Source of the DNA: Mobula hypostoma | Taxonomy: Eukaryota | Length of the DNA: 64,000 nt | Assembly (NCBI RefSeq): GCF_963921235.1 | Contig: NC_086097.1 | Location: 143,594,001 to 143,658,000 of the forward strand | Reading direction: 5' to 3' | Part shown: positions 1 through 64,000 of the stretch, one piece after another | How the letters are laid out: every line of letters starts with the position of its first letter | Numbering within the stretch: the stretch's first letter is position 1 | Position numbers and translations under genes: made by a program | The notes under the pieces: model-generated | Told to the model about the DNA's origin: nothing | The model's database searches: none | What the model saw: only the letters and a program-made list of their open reading frames with translations

Positions 1-432
1 TTCTTCCATCTCCCCCTTCTCTCTTTATCCATTCCCCATTCTGGTTTCCTGTTCACCCTTTCTCTTCTTACTTGCCCATCACCTTCATCTGATGCCCCTC
101 TTCCTTTCATGGTCCACTGTCCTCTCCTATTAGATTCCTTCTTCTTCAGCCCTTTACCTCTTCCACCTATCACTTCCTCAATTCTTACTTCATTTCCCCC
201 TCCCCCAGCTTCCTGCCTTTTCCCTTATCTGTTTTCACCTATCATCTTCCAGCTTCTTCCTCTCCCCACCTTCTTATCTTCTTCCTTCTTCCTTTCTATT
301 CTTGATGAAGGGTCTCAGCCTGAAACATCAAATGTTTATTCCTCTCCACAGGCGCTGCCTGATTTGCTGAGTTCCTCCAGCATTTTGTGTATGTTGCTCA
401 TGATTTCCAGCTTCCACAGAATTTCTTGTGTG
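1..432 (+). mobile_element. Penelope-like element 3' end (pyrimidine-rich tail + hammerhead-like terminal motif)
   Basis: Similar to 17160-17500; TTGATGA-AGGGTCTCAGCCT-GAAAC-ATC at about 302-329, then the family terminal motif GCTGAGTTCCTCCAGCATTTTGTG. Confidence 0.75.
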
Positions 433-771
433 TAGATGACCACACAACCTGTCATGACTACTTTACTATTTAATAAGATCATGGTTGAGTTTGTTAACTC
501 ATTGCTAATTGCACCAAAGACATTTTCTTTAATTCTTACAATGTTGAAAGACTTATTGAACTCTGTGTTGAATATATGTTGCAACAGCATCTACGTAGTT
601 CTCTTAGATCTAAAATGTCAAAGATTCATTCCACTTGTGGTGGAAAAAGTTCTTTCTTTCTTTCTTTTTTCATGGCTAATGCTGGGTTTAGAGACAGTGA
701 CAACTATTTCTAGGCTATATGGTCAGGGGAAACATCATCCCTCAATCTATCCTATTAAACCCCTTAAGAAG

Positions 772-975
772 ACACAAGCAATTCTGCAGATGCTACAAAT
801 CTTGATCAACACGCACAAAATTCTGGAGGAACTCAGCAGGTCAGTCTGCATCAATGGAGGGAATGTGCAGTTGACATTTCAGACTGAAGGAATGAAGGAT
901 CCCAGCCTGAAATGTTGATTACTCATTTCCCTCCATAGATGCTGGCTGCCCACTGCATCACTTAAGAATTTTATG
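772..975. mobile_element. Foldback Penelope-derived short element
   Basis: Inverted arms ATGGAGGGAA...TTGACATTTCAG / CTGAAATGTTGA...TTCCCTCCAT. Confidence 0.7.
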
Positions 976-1799
976 TTTCAAAGAGATTGCCATTCATTTT
1001 TTTGAAACTTAAAGGAATGTGGCTGAATGTTTTGCCTCTCTTCACAGAATAATTGACATTCAAGGAATCTTTGTTGCACTTCCTTTGTTGCAGATGTATC
1101 TGTTCAAAAGGAAGAGAGACCAGACTGTGCACAATATTGCAGGCTCTGCCTCACCAGGGCATATTTACTTTTGCACTTAAATTCTCTTACCATAAAGACC
1201 TATATAGTGTTTGCTCTAAATCCTTACTCTACCTGCAGTTTAGCTTTCAGTGATCCATGTACAGAGAAGTCCAGATTTGTCTGTACACCAGCACATTTCA
1301 ACCTTAATCCTGAATTGAAACTTGCTGGAACTGTGCGCTGGAGGCCAGATACCTTATTAATGTACCTATTTGAATTGGTGTAGGTCACTCACAAAGTTCA
1401 TGCTCACAAACTTACGAACAGGAATTTGGGCCCAGGTCAATGTTACCTGAGCCTCCCACTATCTGGTGCATGACATTGTGGCTCAATTTTTGTGAAGAGG
1501 CCTCACTTGTTGAAGTTAGCTGGTACTGATTGATGCCTTGTCTAACATGGTACAAGCACATTCACTGTCCGCACACACATGGCATTAACAGTGCTTTGTA
1601 TAGGTGCAGCATGAATATGCTTTACCAAGGTTCCTCAGATATAACGAGATCTATTTCTGCTTTTGATTTATTTTTGTCCATCCATGATTTGTTTACATGA
1701 ACCCTTTATTCCCTTTTTTTTTCCATCTTCTGTGAATTTAAAACTTTTTTTTGCCCCTCTCACTTTTGTTGACAGTTGCCTCTATTGAAACCTGTTAAC

Positions 1800-2560
1800 C
1801 ATAGTTTTAGATAAGTGAAGTGGATATGGCAAGTAGAATGTACTGTGAAAAATGTGAGGTCATCTATAAGGTAGTGAAATGGTGGTGTTTCTTTTAAATA
1901 GCAAAAGATTGACAGGTGTTAGTGTTCGGAGGGACTTTGCACAGGAATCACTTTGTAGGTTCAACAAGCAATTAGGAAGGCAAGTGTTAGGTTGAGTTTT
2001 ATCACAAGAGAATTGGTATAGAAAGGTGAAGACACCTTGCTCCTGGTAAGACTATATCTACAAGGTCTCTCTACTGAAGTGTAATAAATTTGTAATGGAG
2101 AAGGGTGGTGAAAGTACACAGGATTGTTTTCTGGGATGACAATTTGTTGCTAAAATGGCAATTAATTAGACCACATCTGTACTCTCTTGAGTTTGGAAGC
2201 ATGGGAGGTAAACTTATTGAAATATACAAACAATTTTAAGGAGATTGACAGCAGAGATGCAGAACTGATAATCACCGTAGCTGTAATGTCTAGAGCCAGA
2301 ACTCAGAGTCACTAAATAGAGGTGGCCCATTTATAATTTCTTCGTCGAGGTTGAGGTGAATCTTTAGAAGTCATGGACCAAGAGGATTGTGAAAGCTGGT
2401 TTATTGAATACAATCAATAAAGAAATTAATAGATTTTTAGATATTAGCGAACCAAAGGATGTGGAGTTATTTCAGAAAAGTGGCACAGAGATAATAGGCC
2501 ACCATAGTCATATTGAATAGAGAAGTAGACATGAGGAAGCAAACGATGGTTCTGTCTCAC
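1800..2560 (+). mobile_element. Old degenerate CR1 LINE 3' fragment
   Basis: Decayed similarity to the younger CR1 3' ends in this window (e.g. AAATGTGAGGTCATC); boundaries approximate. Confidence 0.6.
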
Positions 2561-2867
2561 ATCTCCTTACCTAATCTTTTAAGATTACAAGTATACTAAT
2601 ACTTGCACGTTGAGTATGCATTTTCAACCTTGTATAAGAGTAAGACAACATTTTCTAAGAAAGTTATAACAGTATACTGAATTCATCTCTTTTTTTTGCA
2701 ATGAAAATGCAAGCAAATGCACTTCATCCCACAACCAAATAATTCTGAATTGGTAGTCATCAACATGATTGATATCCTTCAGTTAACTTCAGGACTTTGG
2801 ATCCGGAAGCGTGGATTCAGTTTGCTACATTTTTGCCTTGGGAATTAAATTGAGTCCATTCATAGGA

Positions 2868-3363
2868 ACATAGAAACATAGAAAACCTACAGCACAATAT
2901 AGGCCCCTTGGCCCACAAAGCTGTGCCGAGCATGTCCTTACCTTAGAAATTACCTGGGCTCCGCACTAAACCCAGCAAATCCTCCATCATGTGGGTGGAT
3001 TATTTTGTGGGGGAAAGGTTAGCATCTACTGTCCAAAATGCCTGACCACTGCATTTTCTTATAAACACAAGATATTCTGCCGATTCTGGAAATTTTAATG
3101 ATTAACCTGGTTAGACCACACTTGGAATGTTGTGTTCAGTTCTGGTCACCTCTATTGGAAAGTAAAACATAGAAAACCTACAGCACAATACAGGCCCTTT
3201 ACCCCACAATGCTGTGCCGAACATGTACCTACTTCAGAAATTACCTGGGGTTACCTATAGCCCTCAATTTTTCTAAGCTCCATGTACCTATCCAGGAGCC
3301 TCTAAAGAAACCCTATTGTGTCCGCCTCCACCTCCGTCAGCGGCAGCCCATTCCACGCACTCA
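2868..3363 (-). mobile_element. Two short CR1 3'-end fragments (about 2868-2960, 3165-3363) flanking a + strand CR1 piece
   Basis: ACATAGAAAACCTACAGCACAATA.AGGCCC tail, shared with 36705-37605. Confidence 0.7.
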
Positions 3364-3602
3364 GGAGTAACACTTGAAGAGTGTTGAGGAGTTTTGTGAC
3401 GTCCTAGTTCTGTGAACCAAAATCCATATCAAAAAAACTCCTTTACATAGAAGGAAAAAGAAGAGTAATGTTGAGACATTTTTAAAATAAGATGAAATAT
3501 TTTTACTTGATTTTGCAGTGAGTGTGACAAGGGATGTTTTTGTTTGGGATCTAGAGTGTATACATTTCACACTGACCATTATGTGTAACTATTCCCTCAC
3601 AG

Positions 3603-3792
3603 ACGCCTTCACTGTACCAGGAACTACATCCACATCCATCTCTTTGTGTCTTTCATGCTCCGAGCAATCAGTACCTTTGTGAAGGACGCAGTGCTGTACT
3701 CAAAGACAGCTTTCTTAGATATGGAAGGGGTTGACTGGGCGAGCCTGAAATCTATAACTGAATCTCCTCCATCTCAGGACAAGTCTGAGTAT
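3603..3792 (+). CDS. PTH1R: PTH1R coding exon (ICL1-TM2-ECL1)
   Basis: AG at 3601-3602, GTAAGT donor at 3793. Translates [33 protein letters not shown]...[16 protein letters not shown], containing the class [14 protein letters not shown] motif. Upstream exons were not found in the window. Confidence 0.96.
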
Positions 3793-4950
3793 GTAAGTGC
3801 TGCCTTTTTCTGCGAGCAATTTCTTAAATTATACACAGTTAGATACCACTAATTCTTTATTCACTCCCAATGCTATTTTTCACTGGCAGTTCTCATTCCT
3901 TCCTTGGAGTAGCCATAATGCTCACAGCTGTCTCCCCGTGCTAGTCACAAAGTCATGTTAAAAAGTTAATAATCTTCTCTAAAACTACTAAATATTTTGA
4001 CAAGGTTCAATCATTGATGGGTATTAGAGGAAGGCTTGTGGATTTAATATGTCACCAAAATCAATTTTAAAATTTACCATTATTGACAAAGAATTCAAAT
4101 TCAATAAAACAAAAACATGGAAGGAAGGGGTTAATGCCAGTGACGATGACCACTAAGATGTCAGACAGCTTGCACCTTTTGGGGAAGGAAATCTTCCATC
4201 TCCCTTCTGTGATCCTTGGTTATCCTCTGCAATTACTTTACCAGTCATTTCATTGTATTGAAGGTTTTCATCACACCTCCAAGAGGGAAAAGTCCAAGTA
4301 TGAACCAGTTGCTGTGGTAACTAGGGATAACCCATAAATGCTAGCATATTTTAATACTAAATGGCAAGTAGCAAATTCTTGAGGTGAGATTTTCAATTGG
4401 AACCAGAGAGAATTTTGCAAACTGGTCACGTATACAGGACACAGACATCCAAATGTATTCCAGTTTGCATTGAACAGGTGGAGGAGACTTTCACCTTGTA
4501 GGGATCATTTTGAAACAACCCAACATCTTTATCAATCTAAGCAGCCATAAAGTGTTTTACAACCAGTCCACTGTACATTAATTCTCCAATTTACATTACC
4601 AAAGTTTGTCCTGGTCAATCACTTCCATGTCTGAGAGTTAGAATTCCACTGCATCACTTGCCCAATCACATATAGTAATTATTGCTCATTATTGATTATT
4701 TTTTTCATGAAACAGCAATAGAAAATGTGGAATGTGAGGATAAAGATTAGGATTGAGAATGAGTATATTTAAGTAATGTTGGTGATCCTGAATTATTAAA
4801 AGTGGGAAGTGTGTGAGAACTGAAGAGAATCGTGCATGTACATGTTTATCCCTAATTTTTCATCCTAACACATCACTGTAATTTCTATCAGCATTTTAGA
4901 GCAATAGCTAGCTGTTCCCTGCTGATAGATTTCTCCTTACTCTCCTCCAG

Positions 4951-5104
4951 ATTGGATGCAAGGTGGCTGTCATCATTTTCCTTTACTTTCTGGCTACTAA
5001 TTACTACTGGATTCTGGTCGAAGGCCTTTATCTCCATAGCCTCATCTTCATGACATTTTTTTCTGATAAGAAGTATCTCTGGGGCTTCACCTTAATTGGC
5101 TGGG
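4951..5104 (+). CDS. PTH1R: PTH1R coding exon (TM3-ICL2-start of TM4), 154 nt
   Basis: Pyrimidine tract + CAG, then [51 protein letters not shown], then GTAAGG. Confidence 0.97.
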
Positions 5105-5886
5105 GTAAGGTATCATTTTAAACAAACTTCATTCTCCACTGTTTGCTCTCTTCCCCCGTCTCCCCTGACTCTCTGTCTCCCTTCCTCCCCACTCCTCCAT
5201 CTATTAATTTGTTGTCTGAATGGTTTCATCTGTTTACAATTAGACAGTGTCCAAGTACATTTTAAGCATTCCTTAATAGACAGACATTCTCAACATGTGG
5301 TTTTCTCCATACCTTGGTGTAGATGTCTGAACAATACGAAAGAAATCCATCCCTTAGATAACCACTTACCTGAAAAAAACACTCAGGAAATATTTTTATC
5401 ATATCCAAGGTATTAGATGAGTGACAGAAAAGCTGTGTCACTGGTCTAGGATCCCCAATAAATATGAATGTGAGATACAGAACAGATAGAAACTGCATCC
5501 TCTGCATTGACAGTGGAGTTATTAACCTGTCAAATCATCATTACTAAAGTGCTACGTGTGTGGGAGGGCATGCCATACACATGAGGGAGTTAGTAAGGTA
5601 ACTATGACACAGGAGGAGGCCCATCAACTCCAAGCTGACTCCCAGCAGCTCAAACACATGTACCATTGACTCTGATCTCTTTATTTCCCTGAACCACCAC
5701 ATTGCATTACCAAATTCTGTGCTGGAATGAAGTCTGAGGCTCTGCAACAGGACTCGAGCCTCAGCACTTCTGTTAGAGTGATATAATTAATGAGTAACAG
5801 ATGAAACAAAAAAAAAGGAAACAGAAGGTAATGTCTTGCTCAGAATTTCTGTTTCATTAATTTTTTTGGTTGCTTTTAATCCGTAG

Positions 5887-5947
5887 GGGTCCCTGGTGTG
5901 TTTGTCGCAGCATGGACAAGTGTGAGGGCAACTCTGGCAGATACACA
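5887..5947 (+). CDS. PTH1R: PTH1R coding exon (TM4), 61 nt
   Basis: TAG acceptor, (G)VPGVFVAAWTSVRATLADT(Q), GTACGT donor; phase matches both neighbours. Confidence 0.95.
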
Positions 5948-7039
5948 GTACGTATGGAGGCCTTACCACCTTGGGTAGCGATTTTCTGTGGCAAGTTTGT
6001 ATATATAAAATAGAGCGCAAGCAGAAATGACGTAAGGTAACTCGTGCAGTCCTTCAACTTGCTCAGTAAGACTACTTCTAATTACTTTTCCCAATTCAGC
6101 ATCACATCTTGAATTTAGGAGCAGGCTATCTAAACCTTCATCAACTGAATAATGGTTAATTTGAATATCACTTCCATTTAATTGCTTTTAGTGTTTGACA
6201 AAAATCTGTCAATCTCACTCCTCAATTGATCTATTATCAGCCTTTTGAAGGAAAATATTCTTGATTATACTTGACGATATTTTTAATGAAAAATTGGCCT
6301 TGTAATGCACTCATAAATGGTTTGGACTTGAATTTAAAATTCATGAGATTAAAGAATTAGGATTTTTAATATTGCCAAAAAATGCAGATCGATTTAAGAT
6401 TGCAAATCTTCCTGATATCAGGAAAGGATCAGTAAGGAATATAGGAAAGCAAGCAGGATAAAAACGACTGTAAAAGCTTCTGTAGATTAGATTAGATTAT
6501 GAGGATACGCAGTCCTCTTTTATTGTCATTTAGTAATTTAGATATGTGAAAATGAAAAGGTTAGAAAACATTAAAATGAGTCTCTTAAAGACTGAGACTA
6601 AAGAAATTATATTGAGGAAAAAGGAACCAGTAAAGACATTAAATCTTCATGAAAGAAGATGCAGAAGGCCTGCCAGAAGTAGCAGAAACAATAGGCATAG
6701 AGTGAATGAGGAGCTGGATAAAAGTAACATTATTTAAAAAGAAACATTAATGAAAAACTAATGGGAGTGATAGTCAGTAAAATCCCATCATCTTGTAGCA
6801 TGAGCCTAATGATTTGCAAGATTTGGCTCTGGAGATAAGGAGTGCACTGGTTGTCATCTTCTAAATTTCCAAGGGGCCTCGAACTCTTCATGCTATTAGG
6901 AATATATTGGATCATGCAGCCCAGCTATTTACAATCTATGTCACTGATTTGATAAGGGGATTTTGTGTAATAAATTTGAGTTTACAGAGCTAAACAGGAT
7001 GATACTGTGAATCATGAGATCAAGACTAACCAGCATTGA

Positions 7040-9132
7040 CTGTACTAGTGGCACCTTCATCCCTGAAGTTCTAAAGAACTTTTATGCATGCTTCGAGGCA
7101 TGCATGAATGACTCTAGAAAGTCAACCCCAGAAAGGCTGTGGGATACAGGCCGAGTACTCAGGGAGTTCACACCGGGGATGGACATCTTCAAAACCTCCC
7201 TCATCCAGGATGCTTATCCTGCGTGTTTCAAATCAGCCACCACTATCCCCATACCAAAGAGCTCTACACTTTCAGAACCAAATAACCGCTGCATGGCGGC
7301 ACTGATGCCAATCATCATGAAGTGCTTTGATTGGCTGGTAATGGCACACCAGAAACTACATTCCTGTCACACTGGGCACTGGCCACTGGCCAATACGCTT
7401 ACCGACAGAGCCGGATACCGTAGCATTTGGCACCTGGCCTTGACACGCCTAGAAAACAAGGACATGATGTCAGAATGCTGTTTCTGGATTTCATTTGGGC
7501 ATTCAACACTGTTGTCCCACAGACCTTGGTGAGCAAACTCCTACTCCCCAATCTAAATACACCACAGTGCAGCTGGGTGTTGGACTTCCTAACCAATGGA
7601 GCTCAGGTAGTCAGGATACACAACTGCAACTCCCTCCCCATCATCCGCAACACTGGTTCCCCCCCAGGGCTGCTTGCTAAACCTGTTGCTCACATATGAC
7701 TGTGTGGCCAAGCACTTGAGTAATGGCACTGTCAAGTTTGCTGATGATAAGACCGTGCTGGGGCTCATCACCAACAACGATGAGACGCCCTACAGAGAGG
7801 AGGTGGATGAGCTCGAGACCTGGCGCCAGGCAAATAACCTGTTCCTCAATGTCAGCGAGGCAAAGTTCAAGTTCAATTTATTGTCATTCGACCGTACACA
7901 TCTATCCCTCCAAACAAAACAACATTCTTCCGGACCAAGGTACACAACTCAGTACATATAACTCACGTACACAGCACATAAGGTAGATTAACTAATGATA
8001 AGGTGCATTTACAGCACAAGTTTAAAAAGTACACTGTATAATGCTACTGGCGCTTCCTACATGATGAGACCTTGGTGGTGGCAAGGAGTTTAGTTGTCTT
8101 ACGGGCTGAGGGAAGAAGCTGTTCCCCATCCTGACAGTTCTTGTTCTGATGCTATGATACCTCCTCTCTGATGGTAGGAGGTCAAAGAGATTGTTGTATG
8201 GATGGGAGCGATCATTGATAATGCTAAGGGCCCTGTGTATGCAGCATTTCTGATAAAGATTTCTGATGGTTGGACGAGAGACCGCAATGATTCTCTCAGC
8301 AGCCCTCGCAATACTTTGAAAGGCCGTGCAGTCAGATGTCGTGCAATTCCCATATCAGGTGGTAAAGCAGCTGCATCGGGATACTCTCGATGGTGCTCCT
8401 GTGAAAATTGTTTGGAATGGAGGGGGATGGGGAACCAGTCTCACCTCAAACTCCGCAGGAAGTAGAAAAATTGCTGTGCTTCCTTGATCAAAGAGTTGGT
8501 TATTAACTTCAGGAGAACTTGCAGCACCTGCATCTCTCTTTATATCGACAGCACAGCAGTGGAAACTCTGAGCATTTTCAAACTCCTAGGAGTGCACATC
8601 TTACACAATCTCTCATGGTCCCAGAACACATCCTACACAATCAGGAAAGCTTGGAAAATGCCTCTACTTTCTGAGGAGGCTAAAGAGAACTGAGCTAAGT
8701 GCATCTATACTCACATCCTTCTGCAGATGTGCAGCAGAGAGCATCTTAACATGCTGCATCACTGCAGGGTACGGAAACTACACTGCAGCAGACTGGAAAA
8801 CTCTACAATGGGTAGTCAAAACTGCCCAACACATTACTGGCACCATCAGGACATATATACGGAAAGATGCCAGAAAAGGGCCAGTAACATCATGAAGAAT
8901 CCCATCCAGCCTGTTCATGGACTGTTTGTCCCACTCTCATCAGGGAGGAGACTACATAGCATCCATGTCAGACTCAATAAACAGTTACCTTCCCCAAGGC
9001 AGATCAACACCTCCACCCCTCCACATGCCCCACCACTAGTTTATCATTTTCTGTCAAAGTCAGTAACAATTATTTTGTCCTCCTTTACACTGGTGTACTG
9101 GAAATGACATTAAACAATTTTGAATCTTGAAA
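7040..9132 (+). mobile_element. Rex1/Babar-like LINE, frameshifted RT, interrupted by an antisense Rex1-like 3' end (about 7862-8482)
   Basis: RT motifs FKSATTIPIPK, IMKCF, VRMLFLDF..AFNT, KFADD.TVLGLITNNDETPYREEV; resumes as KELVINFRR at 8484; tail TTGAATCTTGAA. Confidence 0.82.
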
Positions 9133-9187
9133 CTAGGGCTCTCAAGTCTATCCCACCACCCAAAGTGACCCTGGCTGATCTTCAGAA

Positions 9188-9870
9188 GCAGAATCAGGTT
9201 TAATATCACTGACATATATCGTGAAATGTGTTAACTTTGCGGCAATGGTACAATGCAATGCATAATAATAGAGAAAAAGAACTGTGAATTACAGCAAGTG
9301 CACGTGTATTAAATAGTTAAATAGGTAGCGCAAAGAACAGAAATAAAAAAGTAGTGAGGTAGTGTTTATGGGTTCAATGTTCATTCGGAAATCGGATGGC
9401 AGAGGGGTCGAAGCTGTTCCTGAATCATTGAGTGTGAGTTTCCAGGCTCCTGTCCCTCCTCCCTGACGGTAACAATGGGAAGCGGGCTTTTGAGGCCTCA
9501 CTCCTTGACAGTATTCTGGATGTTACGGAGGCTAGTGCCTATGATGGAGCTGACTAAGTTTACAAATCTCTGCAGCTTACTTCAATCCGGTGCAGTAGGA
9601 CCCCCACCTCCCATACCAGATGGTGATGCAGCCAGTTAGAATGCTGTCCATGGTACAGCTGTAGAAATTTCAGTGTGTTTTGGGTGAAGTGCCAAATTAC
9701 CTCAAACTCCTAATGAAATATAGCCACTGCTGTACCTTCTTTGTAGCTGCATTCATATGTTGGGCCCAGTTTTCGTCCTCAGAGATATTGACCAGGAACT
9801 TGAAACTGCTCACTCTTTTCACTTCTGATCCCTCTGTGAGGACTGATGTGGTTTCCCTTATCTTACCCAT
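9188..9870 (-). mobile_element. Rex1-like LINE 3' fragment
   Basis: AGAATCAG tail; similar to 53708-54365. Confidence 0.7.
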
Positions 9871-11055
9871 CCACAGTCGAGACTTAACTCATCTTCTGTG
9901 CCAGTTTCATGCGGAGCTCAGTTCCCCAGTCTTTCAAGTGTGTATCTGTCTTCTCTTTCAATATCTCCAGCAAACTAACTTCCATCAGAACAGAGAGTTC
10001 AAGAAATTCACCATCTTCTGCAAATAGAAATTGGTTTATTATTGTCACATATATCATGGTACAGAGAAAAGCTGTTTTATGTGCTGTTCATATAGATCAA
10101 ATCATCACACCATGCATTACTCAGTTGTAAATGACTGAATCTTTATCTTGAAAGTATATTTCCTCACTCGAGACTCTTCCACTAGAGACCATTGAGACTG
10201 TGAAATATGTTCTTACATTCAGTTAAAAACAATGCTGGACTTCCACCTTACCTCCTATATTGTAGTGGCCCAATAGGATTTCACAGGTTTTAATAAAATT
10301 AGCCCTCATTCTTCTAAACCCAAAAAATACAGAGCTTTTAGGTCTTTATGATAGAACAAGCATCTCGTCCTTGGAATGAGGGCAGTCAGTCTTTTCTGCA
10401 CTGTCAATATGTACAATATGTCCTCACTTAAATAGAGGGGCTGAAACAGCACACAGGTGTGGCCATACCAACACTCTGTACAATTGTAGGGTGTAGGGAA
10501 ACTTAAAAATCATAAAAACAAGTAACAGGACAAAGGCAATGGCAGATGGAACATAATGAGGGAAAATATGAGCTCAACCACAGGCTGGAACAGCTAGAAT
10601 AGTAGAATATTTTTTAAATGGTGAGAGATTGAAACTCAGTCACTGAATATATTTGGGATAGTGATTTTTTTAAAATGCGTTTTTAGAGACTTGGAATATA
10701 TAGCACAACAGAGGATTACATGTGGAATTTACTGAAACTCTGTGTAATTCACCTTCCTCCAAGCCAAATTCCAAAATTTATGAGATAACTTCCATTAACC
10801 AACCACTTTGATTATTTTTGTACTTGTACAGTAATGATAATTGCTTTGTATATCCGGATACATAGAGCATACAGAATTTGTCGGATTTTAGAACACAGAA
10901 GCCATTCAGCAGACTCATTCCCAGATTGTGAAAACTGATGTATCAAATTTCTCACTGTTTTTGTCAAGCTAATGAAAATATATACAGGAATTATAGATAA
11001 TTGTTTCTTATATTGCATCTAATGATATTCTTCCTCTTTTTTTTTACCCCAATAG

Positions 11056-11122
11056 GTGCTGGGATCTAAGTGCTGGAAACTTAAAATTGATTTATCAATT
11101 ACCTATTCTGGCTTCAATATTG
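11056..11122 (+). CDS. PTH1R: PTH1R coding exon (ECL2-TM5), 67 nt
   Basis: TAG acceptor, [28 protein letters not shown] donor. Confidence 0.95.
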
Positions 11123-11227
11123 GTGAGATATAATAAATTTGCCTTCCTCCCCTTAGGATCTAACTCCATTCTGCAAACTTCTGTGTTATCACATTTTTCT
11201 GGTTTCACATTTCTCCTCTTTTTTCAG

Positions 11228-11322
11228 GTGAACTTCATGCTTTTTATCAATATTATCAGACTTCTCGCCACCAAACTGAGAGAGTCCAATGTCGGAAGGT
11301 GTGATACCCGTCAACAGTACCG
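11228..11322 (+). CDS. PTH1R: PTH1R coding exon (TM5-ICL3), 95 nt
   Basis: CAG acceptor, [31 protein letters not shown](R), GTAAGC donor. Confidence 0.96.
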
Positions 11323-12070
11323 GTAAGCTCTAGGGTTTTGGTAGAACAGGCCCTTCTGAAAAGTGGTGTTTAATGTAGAAACGGAAATGGACAAGGAGGC
11401 CCTCAACGTTTTTTCAAATTAAGACACCTTATTAGATCAATATTCATTTATCTATTGCTACCATATTTGGCTTGACAATACTTGAAATATTAAAGAAACT
11501 TTGTGCTTTATCTATGCTAGCAACAAAATGTTTGATGGGACATTAAAGAGGTAGTTTTATCCTAACATTTACTTTACAGTTTCTTGCACCACTTCTTGAT
11601 AAAACCTCTACTTTGTAGTTCCCAACCCATTGTCAATTCTAAAATCACTGATTACATTTGAACTTCAAACTTGGCACGTAATCTATTTCTTATCTGAGCC
11701 TTCCGAGATCCTTCCATTTTCATGTAGCTGAATAGGCGGTCAAGGCCTCAATTCAGATGAAAGGTATCAACCCAGGAATCAAAGTCTGTCTCTCTTTCTA
11801 CAAATGTTGCCTGACCTACTGTGTATTTCCAGCATTTTCATTTTTTTTTTGTCTCAGGTTTTTGTTTTGTGTGTTTTGTCTGGAGCGACTCCTGCAACAA
11901 TGTTCGGCAAATTTAAGGTGGTTAACCTTCTTGCTTGTGAATTGGAAAATAACATGTCCAAGAACTGCTTCAGCCACTAATGGAAGCTGTGATGGAGAGT
12001 GATTGTCGCTGTAATCTGTAAAATATGAAATTAAATGGAAATATCTCATCTGAGCTATTTTTAATTGCAG

Positions 12071-12212
12071 GAAGCTGCTGAAATCGACTTTGGTCCTGTC
12101 ACCTCTGTTCGGAGTACACTACATTGTCTTCATGGCAATCCCTTATACTGAGGTGTCCGGGATTCTCTGGCAAATCCAGATGCATTATGAAATGTTCTTT
12201 AATTCCTCTCAG
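12071..12212 (+). CDS. PTH1R: PTH1R coding exon (TM6-ECL3-TM7 start), 142 nt
   Basis: CAG acceptor, [53 protein letters not shown] donor. Confidence 0.97.
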
Positions 12213-12221
12213 GTAATTATA

Positions 12222-15417: not shown

Positions 15418-15459
15418 GGTTGCTTTGTGGCTGTTATCTACTGCTTTTGCAATGGAGAG
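15418..15459 (+). CDS. PTH1R: PTH1R 42-nt TM7 exon
   Basis: CAG acceptor, GCFVAVIYCFCNGE, GTAAGC donor; the 42-nt TM7 exon typical of secretin-family GPCRs. Confidence 0.96.
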
Positions 15460-36606: not shown

Positions 36607-36704
36607 AATCTGGAGAGTGTTTCCTGCATTCTTTATGTTCCAAATTTCTCACATTTACAGTTTGTTAGTTTTCAATTGCAGATAAACATGTTTTGTCATC
36701 TGTA

Positions 36705-43422: not shown

Positions 43423-43429
43423 TGGAGCC

Positions 43430-53082: not shown

Positions 53083-53104
53083 CTGTGGAATATAACAGGA
53101 CACC

Positions 53105-53240: not shown

Positions 53241-53707
53241 GGACAGCCATCAAATGTGAAAACATAGAAATGGAGCAATCCTGGACCTGTGCTTGGGAGC
53301 ATTCCTGCTTTTTGCCAGGAATCCCATCTGAAATATCCACAGAAGGGTCTATTGATTTACATCATCTGAGGGTCCCTTTGTGAGCCTGGCGATATCCCCA
53401 AATACAGAACAGTAGGAAGGAACAAAGAAACATAATTTTACCTACTACACAGGGTCTCAAACATCATCTCAAATAAAAAGAGACAACGTTGGAAACACTT
53501 AGTAGGTCAAGCAACATCTGTGAAATAGAAACAGAATTTAAAATTCAGATCAGGGACCCTTGACCAGAAGCCTCCACTATTATTTCAGATTTCTGGAATT
53601 TTTAATTTTTTTAAATCTACTCTTTTAATTTAATATAATCTATTCATTTCTTGCCTTGCAGCCTTTGATTTACTAAAGCAAAATACTGAAGTAATTTGAA
53701 ATGGAAA

Positions 53708-54365: not shown

Positions 54366-57300
54366 AAGAACCTGCATACAGCTGCCCATGGCTTCTGATT
54401 GTTCCTAGCTGTCTCTGACATCCTAGCTTCATTACCCTGAGATTTCCCACCACATTTTTTCCCTGCCCCTTTCCGTTCTTTTACATCCTGCACCATTTTT
54501 ATATGCAAAGTTGAATGTAGAAGAATGAACTAAAAATAGAAAATGTTGAGAGTACCCATCAGGCTGTGCGGCATCTGGTGGGATGCTAAGTTAACACGTC
54601 AGATCAATGAGAAAAGTTAAGGATGCAAAATACAAGTACAGAGGTGGGTAAATGGGAGGAGAGGAAGAAAAGAGAGACCCAATTTTGGCACGGAAAGCAG
54701 CAGAGGTTAAATAACAATAGGTGCCTGGTTGGTTCAAGGATGAAGGGTGGAAAGGGGTTAGTGAAGAAATGGAAGAAATGAATTAAGAATTGTCAGTGGG
54801 AAAAGCAGAATTTTTTTCAGTAACAGTTATCCTAAAATATAGTCAGTGGATAAGGTAATACTGAGTTTTGAGTTTTAATATTGAGTCTTGAAACTTGTAA
54901 AATGTGTCATCAAAAGGTCACAGTTTTTCTGGAGATTGTTTTTCACTGAAACAATGGAGAGCGAGATCACAGGGGGAATGGTTGTAGATTTAAAGTGACT
55001 GAGAATTGGAGGCTGTCAGCATGTTTGTAGTCTGACCAAAAAGGATTCTGCTGTTTACTACCCAATCTATAATGAAGTGCTGACCAGTTTTGATCATTGA
55101 ATACAGAACATAAAAATTGAAAGAACAGTAGTTTGATCACTGTTTTCCTGCGCCCTGCCTTTAATCTTTAGAAATGTTACTCATACCAATTTCTCTTGCA
55201 TTACAGATGCTGCATGAATACTGAGCATTTCCAATATATATTTCATTTATCTAAAAAGGTATTACCTTAACCAAGCAAATCTATATTCCCTTTGGGGAAT
55301 CTCACGAATGACTCTATTTCAGGCTTGATTGAGACTTAACAAAGCAACTTCAGTATGTTATGAATCTTCACAAACAAATGTGTTCATCCTCAAACATCAA
55401 TCAATATTGCCTTGGGATTTGGGACAATGTTATGTTTAAGTAGTGAATGGAAGTCTTGTTTTGTAGATTGTACATTAATACACGTGTTTTTGTTGAACAT
55501 TATTCCTTTCATAACACTTATCTAACTGAGAAACTGCATTTGGAATCTCAGTTCCTGATAGGGACAAAAGCTCCAATCTGGTATGTTTAATAGAAGCGAC
55601 CAACAGATAGATTTCATGGAAACTTTTGAAACTTTAATTGGGCAGGAGAAGTTGTTATGAACTAGTGAATTAATGAGCCCCAGTAAGTGCTCAACACAGA
55701 GATAAAATGCAAATACTTATTTGAAGCAAGCAAAGATGCAGGGCAATGGATAAGACTATAGATATGGAAATAGTTTTGAATTGCTTTGACAAAATTATGA
55801 TGGTTGCAAACATGTATGTTCTTTGATTTCCTATGACTCGAAACAAGAGTGTAGGTTGTGTAAATTGTGTGCTTAGTATTAACATCAGGAGGTGAATTTC
55901 TAGGCAAAAAAGTTTTATTGCTTAAAGGAAAAGTAATATTGTGCTGTAAGATTCACTCTTTTTAGGCGATTATGCAGTCAGTCAGAGGACATTTACAGTT
56001 TCTGGCGTTTTTTGGTAATTAGCACAAATTAGTTTGCCTTCCCTTTCTGCCTTACGTTCAAGAGATGAGGTTTCCTGAAGGGACAATGATCGTTATTTTC
56101 AGTATTTTTATAGCATCATGAGTCTTATTCCATGCAATGCACAATGTATTAATCCTGCTGTTAGTGAAGCTATCTTTATTGAGACTGGTCTCTGAAGAGC
56201 AGAATACTAATTGTAAAAGTAAACAGAAGCTGAGGCTGGAAGGAAAATGTTATCTTGAGGTCTGTTAGTGTTGTCCTTAATTTTGCTTCATCACAGTAAT
56301 CTGTAGCCTTTGCCTGTTGTCTGGGGTCATCAAAGTGGTCAGACCACAGTGAAATTTCTAAATTCAGTCTGTTAATAGTAAAAACAGAATTAAGAAGATG
56401 ACTTTTCAGAAATTCAGAGGTTACATCATCCTTTTAAATTGTATAGATTCATTCCATTAATTAATTAATTGCTATAAACTGAATTTTACTGCTTCCTGAT
56501 ATGTTAAATCTGTACTGCATATTGCACCTAATTAGATCCCTTGCAAAATTGGGTTAGAATTTAGTGCTGTTATGCACTCAAGATCATGCATTAAAAAGGA
56601 AACTGCAGGGTACCAAGTAGAACTTCATATATGCTGGCACAGCTCAAGACCCTTCACTGCACGAAAATCTGAGGAGGATATCAGCCCTTAAAGGCAACCT
56701 GCCCATGGTAACCTGCCCTCAGTCACACACATTGCAGAGAGGCTATATAATAGATGGTGAAGGTTTCATAATTGTAAGGATGAACATCAAAATCCTAGTG
56801 GCTGAGATAGTAGCCAGAACTGGGATTTGGTGTTTGGGAGTGCGTGGAGTTAGGAGTAATAATTGGGAACCAACCAGGACCACCATTAAGTAGCATGCTA
56901 GGAGGTGGTTTTAGTAGATTTTTCCAACATGTTGAAGCAAGTCCTGATGGAATGATCACAATCTCATACATGCCAGAGAAAAATGTAGTGCAAGATGTAC
57001 CACTGTCGCACGTGTACATGCACACACACATGTGACCCATAGTTTATCAGGTATGATCATTAGTAATATTTCATTACGATTAATGCATCCACTTTGATTT
57101 GATCCCCAACAATCTTTGTCCTTACCATCTAAGCTTCCACGTCACCATTAAGGTGAAAGCCCCTCTATACCTCAAGGTACATTTTTTTGTGAGCTGTTTG
57201 AGAAACCTGCACAGTTCTGAAGTTGCTCATCAAGCAATCTTTCCGTGTGTAGAGCAACAGTCGATGCTATCCTTAATTGCCCTTGAGGAGGGGGTGGTGA

Positions 57301-58670
57301 GTCACCTTCTTGAACTGCTTCAGGTGAAGGTACTGAGGAAATGAGGATCCTGAGGATTGATTTCAAGAATTTGGATTGAGTGATAGCAAAGAAAAAGTGA
57401 AATCTTTCCAAGTCAGAACATGGAGAGAAATCTGTAGTTGGTGGTAATCCAATGGACCCACTGCATAATGGTGATAGAGATAATCATTTTGAGAGGTGCC
57501 GTAGCAGCATTTGTACCTGGTGTTCACTGCAGTTTTGGTGCAGTACAGGTGGTATCTTCTTCCTTGCTGAAGACTTTTGTAACATACTCATTTATTCCTC
57601 AGTAACGCCCTCTGCCTCCATGAGTAAATTTCCTTCTTGTCTCTTAATCATAACCCTTGCTCTTATAACCTTTTTTTCATTTATTTGTCTATAGACTAGT
57701 TCCAGATTCTCTCTAATGTTTTCTGCCAATCTTTGCTTATGTTTGTTTTTTTCGTGTCAGAACTGTTTATATGTAATCAGCCTGGTGATCAAACTGGCAT
57801 TTATCATATGTTATTATTGTGTTTCTATGCTAAACTGACTGTCCTGTTGTACATACTATATATTACAAATTACTATAAATTGCACATTGCACATTTAGAA
57901 GGAGACATAACGTAAAGATTTTTACTCCTCGTGTCTATGAAGGATGTAAGTGATAAACTCAATTCAATTCAGATTCTTCTTTATTAGCTTGACTTCACTC
58001 TTTCTCTTTTTAATTCCACAGGACACACTTTAATTTTAATTTCCTAATCCTTCTCATGGATGGGAATGTATGTACGCAGCAACATAAATGCTCCACCTTT
58101 AAGGCCTCTCAGTGTTCAATTACTGTTTTGTCTGAAAAGCCTTGATTCCAGTTTTCTAATATGAGATCAGTGCTCATTCACCATATAACTACTCTGATCT
58201 TTACCATCACTGTTAGGAAAGTTATGATATTACGATGGCTTTTATTCCGGTAGTTGATCCATGGAAACTTGCTTCATGTGGTCTGACTCATTTCTGGATC
58301 AGCAATTTTGCCTTCCTCACTGGGCCAGGAACACATTAACCAAGAATGTTCTGCTAAATGTCACTCTCACTTTACCCCTTATGTCATTACTAGTCCAATT
58401 CATGTTTGGGTAGCTGAGGTAATTGGTACTCCATGGATCCTGTATATCCTTTGCAGAACTTTGATCTGATCTGCTACTTATGAGATCAATTACGTCTGTC
58501 TATTTCAAAATATTTCTGCTGTTTATGCATGCAGTCCTATTTTGCACCTCCACTAGATTGGCACCTCATTTTTAGATATGTATGTTTCTTTACATTTTCA
58601 ATTGAACAGTTTGATTGCACTTCCTGATTGGAATGGTGGGGTGGGAGATATGCCAGGCCATGAGATTATA

Positions 58671-59220
58671 CACTCAGTGGCCACTTTATTAGGTACCTTC
58701 TTTACCTAATAAATTGACCACTGAGTATATATTTGTGCTCTTCTGCTGCTGTAACCCATCCACTTCAAGGTTTGATATGTTGTGCATTTGGAGATGCTCA
58801 TCTGCACACCACTGTTGTTATGCATAGCTATTTGAGTTACTGTCGCCTTCCGGTCTGCTTTAACCAGTCTGGCCATTATCCTCTGACCTCTCTCATTAAC
58901 AAGGCACTTTTGCCCACAGAACTGCCACTCACTGGATGTTTTTGCTTTTCTCTGTCAACACTAGAGAGTGTTGTATGTGAAAATCCCAGGAGATCTACAG
59001 TTTCTGAGATACTTAAACCAACTTGTCGGGAACCAACAATCATTCCGCAATCAAAGTCACATTTCTTCCCCATTCTGATGTTTGGTCTTAACAACAACTG
59101 AACCTCTTGACCATGTCTGCATGCTTTTATGCATTGAGATGCTGCCACATGATTGGCTGAAGATATATTTGCATAAATGAGCATGTGTACAGGTGTACCT
59201 AATAAAGTGGCCGCTGAGTA
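58671..59220 (-). mobile_element. Non-autonomous Tc1/mariner element
   Basis: TIRs CACTCAGTGGCCACTTTATTAGGTAC / GTACCTAATAAAGTGGCCGCTGAGTA flanked by TA; transposase N-terminal HTH remnant GMIVGSRQVGLSISETVDLLGFSHTT. Confidence 0.88.
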
Positions 59221-61315: not shown

Positions 61316-61342
61316 CAAATACATTTTCAAAGCATTAGTAGT

Positions 61343-62011
61343 CAACATAAGCAAAATGCTGGAAAACTTGGAAAGTTAGGAAGCATCTACGGAGCGGAAT
61401 AAACAATTGAAGTTTCTGGCCCGGATGCTTCATCAGGACTTCTGACTTGCTGATTTCCTCCAGCGGGAGCTAGAAGAAAGTCCCGAGGTTTGATTGATGT
61501 AAGTGCAGGGCTGAAACAGAAAGCTTGGGTACAAGCTGAATCATGGTGTCGGCGTCTGGGCTCCAGAGAGAGGAATGAACTGATGTCTGGATGGTTTAAG
61601 CGTCTGGCCAGATTGAAAAACTCAGGATGTCGGGATCCGAGGCGAGGGATGGAACAGTTTCATTCGCTGCTCTGCCATGTTTACTCGGCTCTGCACTGAC
61701 CTGAGGCTGTAGTCTGCCCCAGCTGCAGTGACGTTTGACTTCATGTCTGTGGACTCACTTGTGTAAAACTCCAGTTTTAAATACTACTTGTTTACTTTTA
61801 TTGTTTGCACGATTTGGTTTTTTCTCTGCCCATTGGGTGTTTGATAGTCTCCTTTTTTAAATGGGTCCTTTTGGGTTTCTTTGTTTTACGGCTGCCTGTA
61901 AGGAGATGAATCTCAGGGTTGTATAATGTATATATACCTTAATTATAAATGTACTTTGAACTTTGAACATTTTGTGTATGTTGCTCAATATTACCAGCAT
62001 CTGCAGAATCT
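61343..62011. mobile_element. Foldback Penelope-derived element split by a ~500-bp retroelement (about 61465-61967)
   Basis: Terminal motif TTCCTCCAGC|ATTTTGTG is split by an insert ending GTACTTTGAACTTTGAA; CTGATGA...GAAAC on the minus strand at 61404-61441. Confidence 0.75.
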
Positions 62012-63551
62012 CAATGTGCTAATGACCAGATAATCTGATTAAATTATTTTGATTTGCTAAGATCAATTTTGGCTATATATTGGGAGAAACTTCTAGCTTG
62101 TTAAAGTAGTGTGTTTGGATACTTAAAATGAACTGTGCATTCTGAAGCTGCCCAGTCCTATCCAAAAGATGACATTACCTACCCTTGCACAATACAGTGA
62201 AATGTCAGCCTAGATTTAGTGATCAAATTCTTTAGAGCGAAACTTGAGACCGCAACTGTCTGACTCAGTGAATGCCAGGTGACAGATACAGGAAAGGAAA
62301 GTATATTAAGCAAGGAAAACTAATGTTACTGAATGGGGATGTCAATTAAATTGTATAGCCTTTGCATTATTTTCAGTTTTCAGATTTCCAGGATCTGCAC
62401 TATTTTATTTTATTATTAAATTCTCACTAACGTAGAATGATATTTTAAATATGAACTAAGTTTATCAAGTGCAGAAATGTGTGTAATTTCACACAAGAGT
62501 TAGGCAAGTGTATTAAAACTGTGCTCCAGATGCGTTTGATTTGTGAAGGCTTAAAATAGCAAGCTCTAATCCCAAATTTATTTGAAATACATTTCTGTTT
62601 GTCAAATACTATGTTTGTATGTATGGCTGCACACGTTCCTTTATCATGCTACTTAAATAATAAATCTGTGAATTCACATGGTAGCATTTTGCAGGAAGAA
62701 ATGAATTAAATATTTTGAGGATTATCCCAAACTATCTATCTTGTTAAAGTTATTGAATTATCAGAGAATCCTTAAGGAAAAGCATGATTTGCCAGATAGC
62801 GACAACAGTACGAAAATGCTACAGTTCAGACCACAGTACAGCATCAAGCTGTACATGAACTAAGAGAAAAAAGCTGACAAATTGGTTATTTCTTTTTGCC
62901 ATCTCCAATTGTAACATAAAATGATCGATGAATTATTCATGCCCCTTAATGAGCAGGGTGTTTTGTAGAACAGTACAAAGTCTGATTTACATGAAATGCA
63001 CCGCGAATTTGAAAATCTAACCTCTTTTCTGAGCTTCAAGCTTTGAGTTAAGTGTCAATCCATTTTCAGATAGAGCTTCTTTACACAGCAGACCATTGTA
63101 AATCCGTGAGTCTTTTCCAATGGATCCACAGAAAACATTTCCTTTGATTTATTTGCAGTCTGCCATTTTCAAATGACTTTGAATATATGGCGTCATTCAT
63201 AGGATGTTCTCAGTTTGTACTGACTCAGCTGCACTTACCAGGTTCCTGAATGTTATAATTACCAGAAGGGAAAAGGAAAATATAGCTAGTTATTTTGCCT
63301 TTGCCAATTATTTGCTAATTTTTGACAGACAGTACGGTATACAGTTTGGGTTTTGGGTATAGAGAGCTTGAGTCATTATTCCATGATCAGATCGCCTTCA
63401 ATACATTATGAATGGCTGATGTTTTGCATGATTATTCTGGTCATATTCTGATTGCTACCTGCTGGGGGAATAACAAGGGCCACTAGGACACAGAAATAGG
63501 ATCTGGTGCTTTCACAAGCAAAAGAACATATACAGATGCTGGAAATCCAAG

Positions 63552-63774
63552 TGAAGCTCCTTCAATAATTCCAAAAGACTGAAGTAGGGTAAATACTGAA
63601 AGGCTTTTATTTGCTGTACAACACGACTTCCATGTGTCTGCCCCTGGACTGAGGGGGAGGGGCAAGGTGAAATCACCTTTATTCAGGGGTCTGTGGGAGG
63701 AGCCACAGGGGCAGTCAGCAGAGGGGCGTCTCCAGACAGGTAACCCAGTTACAACATATATATGGTTTACCACA
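63552..63774 (-). mobile_element. Solo LTR, 223 bp, inserted in a Penelope-derived element (about 63515-63870)
   Basis: TG...CA termini, 5-bp TSD CCAAG (63547-63551, 63775-63779), two AATAAA on the minus strand. Confidence 0.8.
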
Positions 63775-64000
63775 CCAAGCAACACACACAAAATGCTGGA
63801 GGAGCTCATCAGGAATCTATGGAAAAGAGTACAGTTGGCATTTCGGGCCAGGACACTTCATCAGGATGGGCGGTTGCTCACGTTGTCATTTCTTCATTCG
63901 AATTAAAAAAAGATGAAGTTCACTTTCTATTTTGTCTTTCCATTCTATTTGCAATTCCTCTGATAATGAAAATCTGGACACCATTCATGCACAGGCTGAT

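Follow-up and report, generated by a model that had tools for sequence, protein, structure and literature searches.

Minimal hammerheads in Penelope-like elements

Minimal hammerhead ribozymes occur in the pseudo-LTRs (pLTRs) of metazoan Penelope-like elements (PLEs), including Xena, Poseidon and Neptune of fishes (Cervera and de la Pena, 2014, PMC4209133). Their role is still described as open in the part of a later survey drawn on here (Craig et al., 2021, PMC8557442). The family studied here shares with these elements, as far as the sections consulted describe them, the core CUGANGA/GAAA/UH, a helix I of 4-5 bp, an unpaired base between positions 9 and 10.1, a palindromic 15.2-16.2 (15.1-16.1) stretch without loop 3, and a place in both pLTRs; solo copies from truncated elements predominate, and opposite-strand pairs occur (PMC4209133). 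Helix II differs, having 4 bp and a 4-nt loop compared with 7-8 bp in Schistosoma. The G10.1-C11.1 pair is described as highly conserved (PMC4209133); here the oldest lineage has A-U at 10.1-11.1, and the youngest has G-U as its master state. A structure descriptor that requires the core, GAAA, UH and at least 4 bp in each of stems I and II puts the number of intact copies in this genome at an estimated 84,000 (56,000-121,000), compared with 4,000-9,000 in coelacanth and Xenopus (PMC4209133). The searched portions of two supplementary files of that study hold no shark, skate or Callorhinchus entry.

PAc, a Poseidon element of Anolis carolinensis (Frangieh et al., 2024, PMC11167929), is alike in its two adjacent 3' end sites, its tail of 30-40 nt and its hammerhead upstream of the 3' end sites; nor, in the sections of that report used here, is there any sign of cleaved RNA as template. 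It differs in that Poseidon is without the CX2-5CxxC linker present here, and in that its ORF starts inside the ribozyme, whereas ours begins about 140 nt past the cleavage site. Endonuclease-positive PLEs of the Neptune clade, as characterized in the parts of two studies consulted (Arkhipova et al., 2013, PMC3846280; Craig et al., 2021, PMC8557442), share the C-terminal GIY-YIG domain with CCHH, the CX2-5CxxC linker and DKG, as well as partial tandems, inverted 5'-truncated copies, a one-sided tail and target-site duplications. Unlike in that clade, no strong (TA)n targeting was seen at the insertion junctions inspected here.

The A6C core change found in some of our copies is also that of the phage Bcep176 hammerhead (CUGCUGA or CUGCCGA; Perreault et al., 2011, PMC3088659; Naghdi et al., 2020, PMC7151607); here it is a retroelement lineage trait with more than 10,000 exact matches, set in a minimal type-I scaffold. 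Animal non-LTR retrozymes also have a type-I hammerhead of PLE origin, according to the part consulted of a study that took in one chondrichthyan genome (Li, Clavereau and Pollet, 2026, 10.64898/2026.07.22.740005). They are non-coding tandem arrays, whereas the copies here are dispersed pieces of a coding element.

Copies in the window

In the 64-kb stretch of DNA analysed (the window), a profile made from window copies together with a single genome copy finds 17 family fragments. Seven hammerhead-like motifs and two CTGATGA heptamers had been listed in the initial annotation, and the window letters confirm their positions and strands. The features are as follows.

1-430, plus: truncated Penelope-like copy, a 3' pseudo-LTR remnant with pyrimidine-rich part, hammerhead motif and tail (profile)
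296/297-334, plus: decayed hammerhead motif with C3U and no G8A, broken in stem I and in the ACGU palindrome; sense, within a PTH1R intron
773-977, both strands: two pLTR end pieces folded back head to head, one minus (773-887) and one plus (892-977), part of the core missing in both arms (profile)
3603-19143, plus: PTH1R-like gene, last eight coding exons; more exons lie upstream of the window
11749-11846, plus: older related family, decayed copy; PTH1R intron, sense (profile)
14768-14843, minus: older related family, decayed copy, CTGATGA kept, stems broken (profile, E 6e-10)
15975-16004, minus: older-family motif reduced to its 5' half, with the stem I strand, CTGATGA and some of stem II, the GAAA half being absent (by eye)
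16237-16408, minus: 5' inversion of a truncated element, with inverted tail (16237-16300) and inverted internal ORF piece (16293-16408)
16410-17140, plus: broken ORF remnant, end of the RT region and GIY-YIG endonuclease, about 210 nt gone at 16725
17141-17503, plus: 3' pseudo-LTR of the 16410-17140 element, ending at the first tail site
17406-17443, plus: best-preserved window motif, A6C core, C17U, ACGU kept, stems I and II retained with wobble pairs; last PTH1R intron, sense
20187-20234, minus: short decayed fragment, motif 3' half and tail start (profile)
28013-28095, minus: pLTR end piece (the 28060 copy), core altered, stem III and cleavage site lost by deletion (profile)
28810-28906, plus: pLTR end piece with A6U and with damage to stem II and G12 (profile)
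32053-32275, both strands: one fold-back insertion with a 9-nt target-site duplication, its minus arm at 32053-32124 and its plus arm at 32139-32275; the motif at 32142-32179 belongs to the A6C lineage and has G8A
39502-39606, minus: pLTR end piece, strongly decayed (profile)
45439-45519, plus: older related family, fragment (profile)
53474-53567, minus: older related family, decayed copy (profile)
54531-54610, minus: older related family, fragment (profile)
61343-61441, minus: pLTR end piece from stem I onward, core retained, stems I-III broken (profile)
61966-62012, plus: tail-only fragment (profile)
63776-63869, minus: pLTR end piece, core retained, stem I broken, cleavage triplet destroyed by U16.1C (profile)

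At the family level CUGANGA, GAAA and UH are present in that order, and no single window copy combines them with intact stems. The earlier statement that no copy is intact holds for the window, where the canonical descriptor gives no match and permitting A6C gives one (17406). It does not hold for the genome, in which one exact intact 36-nt motif occurs 35,322 times (control 0). A proposed older subfamily keeping CTGATGA is upheld at 14837, which lies in the related older family; at 15994 only the motif 5' half remains, and neither profile matches it. Cleavage by the damaged window copies is unlikely, and all of them, those in PTH1R introns included, would be dead passengers.

Identity and abundance of the element

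Two window copies (1-430 and 17141-17503) are joined to endonuclease remnants. The remnant of the former has its end just upstream of the window (L298:9780-9999, 73% to the end of the L048 ORF); that of the latter, at 16410-17140, matches PF01541 at E 2.6e-4, below the curated cut-off, and L048 at 75-76%. In L048, a full copy elsewhere in the genome, the motif stands in both pLTRs (2528-2565 and 6044-6081, 3516 nt apart) and flanks a 1016-codon RT and GIY-YIG ORF; two further near-complete ORFs were found. The element unit consists of pLTR, ORF (RT, CX4CxxC linker, GIY-YIG with CCHH) and pLTR. Matches of the ORF to RVT_1 (E 6e-5) and GIY-YIG (E 6e-4) both fall below curated cut-offs, and YIDD, DKG, and CxxC between the VIY and YIG boxes can be read in its translation.

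The reading of the repeat as a ribozyme-bearing Penelope terminus is borne out by the physical linkage of the motif to RT/GIY-YIG ORFs and by the PLE-typical two-site tail, 5' inversions and target-site duplications. It is virtually certain that the motifs are decayed pseudo-LTR ends of a very abundant endonuclease-positive PLE whose intact copies carry the hammerhead motif. The window holds no new kind of element. Because a CX4CxxC linker precedes GIY-YIG in L046, L047 and L048, and a CX2-5CxxC linker belongs to the definition of the type in the part of that survey consulted (PMC8557442), the element appears to be Neptune-type, an assignment made by this one motif. Its presence speaks against the Penelope/Poseidon clade, which is defined by having no such linker.

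Most copies are short, 5'-truncated or folded back, and head-to-head pairs number 42 among 308 profile matches. The term SINE-like fits the short copies of 100-135 nt only, and these are truncated pLTR pieces without a separate head. A tRNA-derived SINE does not fit, as short copies start inside the pLTR and the Rfam scan of the window gave no tRNA match. Nor does a non-LTR retrozyme fit the window, where copies are dispersed or linked to ORF remnants and no same-strand neighbours lie within 600 nt.

Across 120 evenly spaced 10-kb genome stretches (1.2 Mb), the profile found 291 family fragments and, in a block-shuffled control, none. This corresponds to a genome-wide density of about 240 fragments per Mb and, by extrapolation from the sample, to about 840,000 fragments in total. 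Canonical 14-mers occur 144,382 times in the genome (control 193). Of the two scans suggested at the outset, the descriptor detected the hammerhead, with 30 matches in the same 1.2 Mb against 0-1 per shuffle (five shuffles); 29 of the 30 belong to the Penelope-like hammerhead family, and 23 have the ACGT palindrome. Up to E 10, the Rfam scan of the window showed no hammerhead, which is expected because the motif is minimal and decayed.

Hammerhead structure and lineage variation

The motif is the minimal, dimer-type hammerhead already known from metazoan PLEs, and the initial assignment of stems, core, cleavage triplet and ACGU palindrome agrees with its published form in the sections consulted (PMC4209133). 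The by-eye consensus and that of the profile differ only at stem II position 11.1, where 112 of 241 copies have C and 110 have T. In the stems 81.6% of cells are paired, compared with at most 43.6% in slid registers, and an unpaired extra A separates 9 from 10.1 in 184/201 copies. Among 121 distinct copies the 10.1-11.1 pair is G-C in 62, G-U in 31, A-U in 7 and unpaired in 21. Between lineages the core varies chiefly at N7, a free position (T in 98, C in 59, A in 23 and G in 8 of 192), and it is retained across lineages differing at about 36% of synonymous sites. In the older family (35 copies), U-A stands in place of C-G in stem I and A-U in place of G-C in stem II, with the core kept; the 5' strand of these compensatory changes was seen in 6 of 8 readable copies.

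The predicted covariation is weak across copies and not significant on most measures. In the 121 distinct copies double changes are in excess (10 of 500 shuffles reach the count), whereas percent paired (47/500) and the covariation score (150/500) are not distinctive. CpG decay may mimic part of such a signal. Conservation of the core among copies is no higher than that of the tail, as expected for dead copies, and this gives no support. The folding energy of the motif is no better than that of shuffles (z 0.10). For a lone copy, folding predicts a hairpin that pairs the core with the stem III strand and is inactive (-11.0 kcal/mol, compared with -7.0 for the open core). The intact form probably has some real cleavage activity.

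Ends of the insertions

The 3' ends of copies fall at two sites, at about +65 and about +102 nt counted from the predicted cleavage site. In a first set 20/60 end at +63 to +68 and 28/60 at +99 to +108; in a second, selected for an intact -31 to +4 and confined to the first 8 Mb of one contig, 29/95 and 42/95 end at the two tail sites. Young copies do not start preferentially at the cleavage site; their 5' ends pile up at the stem I 5' edge. In the first set 11/60 begin at -33 to -30 (1.1 expected, P 3e-8) and 1/60 at the cleavage site (1.1 expected); in the second 19/95 begin at -33 to -31 (4.3 expected, P 1e-7), and 11 of those 19 have target-site duplications of 8-15 nt. The 5' ends are spread continuously, out to nearly 2 kb. 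Causes other than an RNA start may underlie the pile-up: at its place are a branch-point, a pyrimidine tract and an AG resembling a 3' splice site, and many 5' ends take in base -33, one upstream of an initiator-like A.

The A6C lineage

At 17406 (CTGCTGA) and 32142 (CTGCCAA) the C marks a lineage and does not result from decay. A6C copies make up 17/159 of an unbiased set, and the change is linked to a diagnostic site outside the motif (15/17, compared with 18/131). Genome-wide, exact A6C 14-mers number 10,188 compared with 2,193 for the transition A6G. The A6C-core lineage, window copies 17406 and 32142 included, has spread to more than 10,000 copies. Its endonuclease majority sequence is open, with pN/pS of 0.07-0.10 to young lineages. 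The A6C copies may not be monophyletic: among the tree rows listed, 49 young canonical rows stand apart from the rest (100/100), but at least four older canonical-core copies are placed among or beside A6C rows. We infer that the lineage stayed autonomous after the core change.

Cleavage and transposition

The explanation that we hold to be quite probable as a whole is that these are PLE pLTR ends with a weak hammerhead, aided by dimerization or protein, and a mostly uncut RNA template. The intact hammerhead would cleave weakly, either in dimeric form or assisted by the protein of the element, and the element's RT would start copying within the RNA at the two tail sites, as in vitro for PAc. 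That the main template is uncut RNA is in itself likely. Copying would often halt at the 5' edge of stem I, most plausibly since the RNA begins there, and would therefore yield the 100-135 nt pieces and fold-backs. We give an RNA start at stem I an even chance. Cleavage would be a modulating step that removes a 32-nt leader and is not required for spread. A stricter version is tentative, its chance somewhat below even: the RNA would start at the first base of the hammerhead, the cut would act as a 5'-terminal switch removing a capped 32-nt leader, only uncut RNA would be copied, RT run-off at that base would give the short and fold-back copies in their hundreds of thousands, and spread of an autonomous A6C lineage with a crippled core to tens of thousands of copies would mean that cleavage is dispensable in vivo.

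Alternatively, cleavage could be essential, with hammerheads in tandem transcripts cutting as a dimer and the unit-length RNA circularized as template (Cervera and de la Pena). In agreement with this, both pLTRs carry the motif, at a spacing of 3516 nt, the palindrome is retained in 23/30 intact matches and the core is kept across divergent lineages; a ligated circle leaves no cleavage-site end, so that the scarcity of such ends is compatible. However, a circle fails to account for the pile-up at -33 to -30. The A6C lineage spread widely, yet A6C strongly lowers Mg-dependent cleavage in two other hammerheads, according to the portion consulted of PMC7151607, and PAc insertion in vitro is described as unaffected by catalytic mutants in the part used of PMC11167929. 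Essential cleavage is unlikely.

Slightly less likely is a non-catalytic relic, its letters kept as a pLTR transcription start, splice acceptor or protein-binding structure. Initiator-like and 3'-splice-site-like signals do overlap the stem I 5' strand, a Drosophila Penelope intron ends at helix I (described in the part consulted of PMC4209133), covariation is weak, and non-canonical 10.1-11.1 pairs and A6C are tolerated. But GAAA, U16.1, H17 and the palindrome fall outside those signals and are kept in all lineages, N7 varies freely, the older family has compensatory pairs, and the related PAc motif cleaves with protein present (sections consulted of PMC11167929). It is improbable that the 100-135 nt copies are an independent SINE-like mini-element with its own internal promoter, served in trans by Penelope protein: target-site duplications and a common 5' end at stem I are seen in many short copies, but they also share lineage variants of ORF-bearing copies, their 5' ends grade into the continuum, and they show neither a separate head nor, in the window, a tRNA match.

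The family in this genome is young and very abundant. It has near-intact ORFs, identical ribozyme copies by the tens of thousands, precise insertion ends and three natural variants (A6C, G10.1-U11.1 and A10.1-U11.1), which together make it directly testable whether cleavage matters for transposition. If the A6C lineage did spread autonomously with a crippled core, it would be a natural test in which cleavage proved dispensable for Penelope transposition in vivo.

Position relative to PTH1R

The last exon of the PTH1R-like gene matches PTH1R chains at E 2e-21; the inner exons were read by eye from translations. The initial annotation had placed several copies within this transcription unit. Of its seven motifs, those at 296 and 17406 are intronic and in sense orientation, and the other five lie 9-45 kb past the stop codon; the heptamers at 14837 and 15994 are intronic and antisense. 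That intronic copies regulate PTH1R by cutting its pre-mRNA has a negligible chance, for although the copies at 297, 892, 11749 and 17406 are sense, each has core or stem defects, four further fragments in the same introns are antisense, and 17 fragments in 64 kb equal the genome average. The PTH1R location looks incidental, because the family has this density genome-wide and all intronic copies are damaged.

Occurrence and abundance of the motif

The seven hammerhead motifs and two CTGATGA heptamers reported in the initial annotation are all present where it had placed them. We searched with a profile whose seeds were three copies from the window and one from the genome at large. It matches 17 fragments in the window and 291 same-family fragments in a genome sample of 1.2 Mb (of 3,476 Mb), made up of 120 10-kb stretches at even spacing, against none in the shuffled control. 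Extrapolation gives about 840,000 family fragments genome-wide (750,000-945,000, a range that covers Poisson error only). A structure descriptor specifying the canonical core and both stems finds 30 motifs in the same 1.2 Mb and 0-1 in five shuffles; 29 of the 30 belong to this Penelope-like element (PLE) family, and 23 carry the ACGT palindrome. One intact 36-nt form of the motif has 35,322 exact copies genome-wide (control, 0), and a canonical 14-nt 5' half has 144,382 (control, 193). The profile, descriptor and exact 36-mer counts, set against their controls, rule out a chance origin of the motifs. The earlier statement that no copy is intact is correct for the window, where the descriptor finds no canonical motif and, with the core change A6C (CTGC..) allowed, matches only the copy at 17406; it does not extend to the genome, where the intact 36-nt form is abundant. 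A scan with the Rfam hammerhead models, which had been proposed as a check, gave no match to any hammerhead family in the window at E values up to 10.

In sequence, and in its location in the pseudo-LTR (pLTR), the motif agrees with the minimal hammerhead that Cervera and de la Pena described in PLEs, naming Neptune elements of fishes among the carriers (PMC4209133). The motif is real, and a putative ribozyme of this minimal kind. We found no account of PLE hammerheads in cartilaginous fishes, the group to which the host probably belongs by its repeat types, but supplements, subscription papers or Repbase may hold one.

Element structure and clade

Copy 17406 is the end of a truncated element at 16237-17503, in which the parts follow one another in this order:

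inverted tail and inverted ORF piece
RT-end remnant
GIY-YIG remnant (PF01541, E 2.6e-4, below cut-off)
motif-bearing pyrimidine-rich repeat

As with 17406, copy 297 is preceded by an endonuclease remnant, which ends just upstream of the window. Searching the genome at the protein level brought up 171,386 candidates at a first look, and among the 150 of these that were scored, three loci have open frames of more than 1000 codons. One of the three, L048, is a complete element with a motif-to-motif period of 3516 nt.

Features of the complete element L048 (locus coordinates)
from about 2301: 5' repeat
2528-2565: motif of the 5' repeat
2699-5746: ORF, from the likely ATG
6044-6081: motif of the 3' repeat
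to 6143: 3' repeat

The L048 protein gives weak RVT_1 and weak GIY-YIG matches. It has DKG and YIDD motifs; a CxxC stands between its VIY box and its YIG box, and a CX4CxxC lies just upstream. A linker of the CX4CxxC type marks Neptune and Nematis, and Penelope and Poseidon lack it (PMC8557442); on this linker motif Poseidon is rejected as the clade. A PDB search with the element ORF gave no match. Another locus (L047:3059-6124) has a near-complete ORF in whose proline-rich N-terminal region about 60 codons are duplicated internally and in frame. Two further loci (L053 and L054) hold identical composite Penelope insertions, direct and inverted, within 20 kb, reflecting either local duplication or an assembly artefact.

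Ends of copies and a possible mechanism of copying

Copy ends were studied in two sets, one of 60 young fragments that reach the tail and share at least 88% identity with L048, the other of 95 copies that carry the exact 36-mer, drawn from the first 87 loci of the listing and restricted to copies whose -31..+4 stretch is intact. Positions are counted from the predicted cleavage site after GUC. In the first set, 3' ends fall at +63..68 in 20 of 60 and at +99..108 in 28 of 60; in the second, 29 and 42 of 95 end at the same two sites. This two-site tail matches the RT initiation sites of the anole Poseidon element PAc (PMC11167929). No excess of 5' ends is seen at the cleavage site in the first set (1/60 vs 1.1 expected), and the sole such end is an inversion junction. 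The 5' ends pile up instead at the 5' strand of stem I: 11 of 60 are at -33..-30 (1.1 expected, P 3e-8), and in the second set 19 of 95 are at -33..-31 (P 1e-7 against the 4.3 that the 14 adjoining nt would predict), 11 of these 19 copies having clear target-site duplications.

The anatomy, counts, ends and lineage variants are direct observations. From these we propose that reverse transcription would initiate internally, at the two tail sites, that its template would be mostly uncut RNA, and that copying would frequently halt at stem I, an RNA start there being the best explanation of the halt. The initiator consensus, YYANWYY, is matched at stem I with its A at -32; at +28..+33, comparison by eye with the consensus of the downstream promoter element gave no match. 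We found no account of the stem I pile-up of 5' ends, though supplements or databases may hold one.

The pile-up could also be due to a 3'-splice-site-like signal at the same place. In L048 (2509-2531) and sister copies, a branch-point-like CTCAC or CTAAC, a pyrimidine tract and two AG lie directly upstream of and inside stem I, resembling the Drosophila Penelope intron, which ends at helix I (PMC4209133; PMC2377424). Among the runs listed, 22 contain the stretch, all as contigs and none recorded as RNA. Contigs from four runs have neither start or end peaks nor a GT..AG skip into the motif, and since contigs cannot show RNA ends they count neither for nor against. An RNA start at stem I is preferred over the splice signal. 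An extra G from cap copying is unsupported: of 29 non-continuing copies, 8 have G just before the A of stem I, but C and T are almost as common there, and T at -33 is the commonest 5' end in the second set.

Contigs of two different organisms (runs X1 and X5) join L048:2527, one base upstream of stem I, to L048:2818 on the opposite strand, which suggests a shared or amplified rearranged copy. Fold-backs are common, with 42 head-to-head pairs vs 5 tail-to-tail among 308 hits, and two head-to-head ones are in the window (773-977 and 32053-32275). A stem I snap-back is not their rule, as the turn falls at the cleavage site and stem I in about 2 of the 42 pairs and at scattered microhomologies in the others. 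Published minimal hammerheads cleave weakly as dimers (PMC4209133); a fold-back cannot supply such a dimer within one transcript because its arms are on opposite strands. According to PMC11167929, cleavage can need the element's own protein, and insertion in vitro was still seen with catalytic mutants.

Lineages and the A6C core

When 142 copies are clustered on positions outside the motif, they fall into a group of young copies, whose mean divergence is 5-7%, another in the middle, and older groups at 15-28%, all with the same motif. Lineage-level variation in the core is mainly at N7, a position left free in hammerheads (T in 98, C in 59, A in 23, G in 8 and a gap in 4 of 192 copies). The single exception is A6: 17 of 159 unbiased copies have C there, and this C is tightly linked to one site outside the motif (15/17 vs 18/131 of the others). 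Genome-wide exact counts of the transversion A6C (10,188) are above those of the transition A6G (2,193), so A6C marks a lineage and not recurrent mutation. A set of 83 distinct copies that still join endonuclease to motif, biased because it was collected by similarity, includes 34 with A6C or a state decayed from it. The A6C endonuclease majority frame is open, copies are 8.8% from the majority, and pN/pS against the young majorities is 0.07-0.10. In the tree, 49 young canonical rows are set apart from the rest at 100/100. In the lower part of the tree, four older canonical-core copies lie among or beside the A6C rows, so the A6C copies are putatively monophyletic and the lineage putatively autonomous. 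A6C is a known natural hammerhead variant, cleaving poorly in Mg and better in Mn according to PMC7151607 and PMC3088659; we found no account of an A6C PLE lineage, though supplements or databases may hold one.

In the youngest lineage, whose copies diverge by 2.2% (minimum 0.3%), position 11.1 is U. It reads T in 23 and C in 20 of 44 young copies, against T in 3-4 of 44 at the other CpG cytosines. Two lineages differ at the 10.1-11.1 pair from the minimal PLE hammerhead as given in PMC4209133.

Covariation and folding

An older, related hammerhead-bearing family (35 copies) keeps the core, with A at 10.1 in 22 of 26 and T at 11.1 in 25 of 33. In its stem I the 3' strand reads AACT and, in 6 of 8 readable copies, the 5' strand reads AGTT; this older family and the main one thus differ by two double changes in stems. 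In an alignment of 126 unselected gap-free sample copies with 5 of 9 older-family copies (the other 4 being of doubtful register), 81.6% of stem cells are paired vs at most 43.6% in slid registers. Of 500 shuffles, 47 reach the observed percent paired, 150 the covariation score and 10 the double-change count. Stem covariation is therefore suggestive between the families, but over the whole alignment most measures do not stand out from the shuffles. One older-family copy, L299:4066-4104 (-), also reads CTGCTGA: either A6C arose in that family too or the copy has decayed.

Folding z-scores of the window copies (-1.4 to 0.4) are uninformative. For a lone young motif, a hairpin at -11.0 kcal/mol is predicted vs -7.0 for the open core; in it the stem III strand and C17 are the partners of G5-G8, and A6C would abolish this predicted G5-G8 pairing. 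Co-folding of two motifs predicts a full intermolecular duplex and not the active dimer, which is beyond the program's scoring.

Copies within PTH1R

The last exon of the host gene matches PTH1R chains (E 2e-21), and further exons were recognized by eye, seven at 3603-15460 and two upstream of the window.

Fragments in PTH1R introns
297, 892, 11749, 17406 (starts): sense
773-887, 14768-14843, 15994, 16237-16300: antisense

Copies do lie inside the PTH1R transcription unit, as had been claimed. Regulation of the host gene by them is unlikely, since every intronic fragment is damaged and fragment density in the window equals the genome average.

Other features of the window

A near-perfect 67-nt palindrome (58666-58732) resembles the terminus of a small inverted-repeat element; Rfam matches it to mir-9256 at 49.4 bits, below the cut-off of 80. 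At 42688-43401, a 51-nt unit is repeated in tandem about 14 times, with open frames on both strands. CR1-like LINE pieces occupy 21943-27401 and 35131-36717; the latter has a 528-codon open frame with RVT_1 (E 7e-27), and nested inverted arms, 92-97% identical, lie at 22012-27401.
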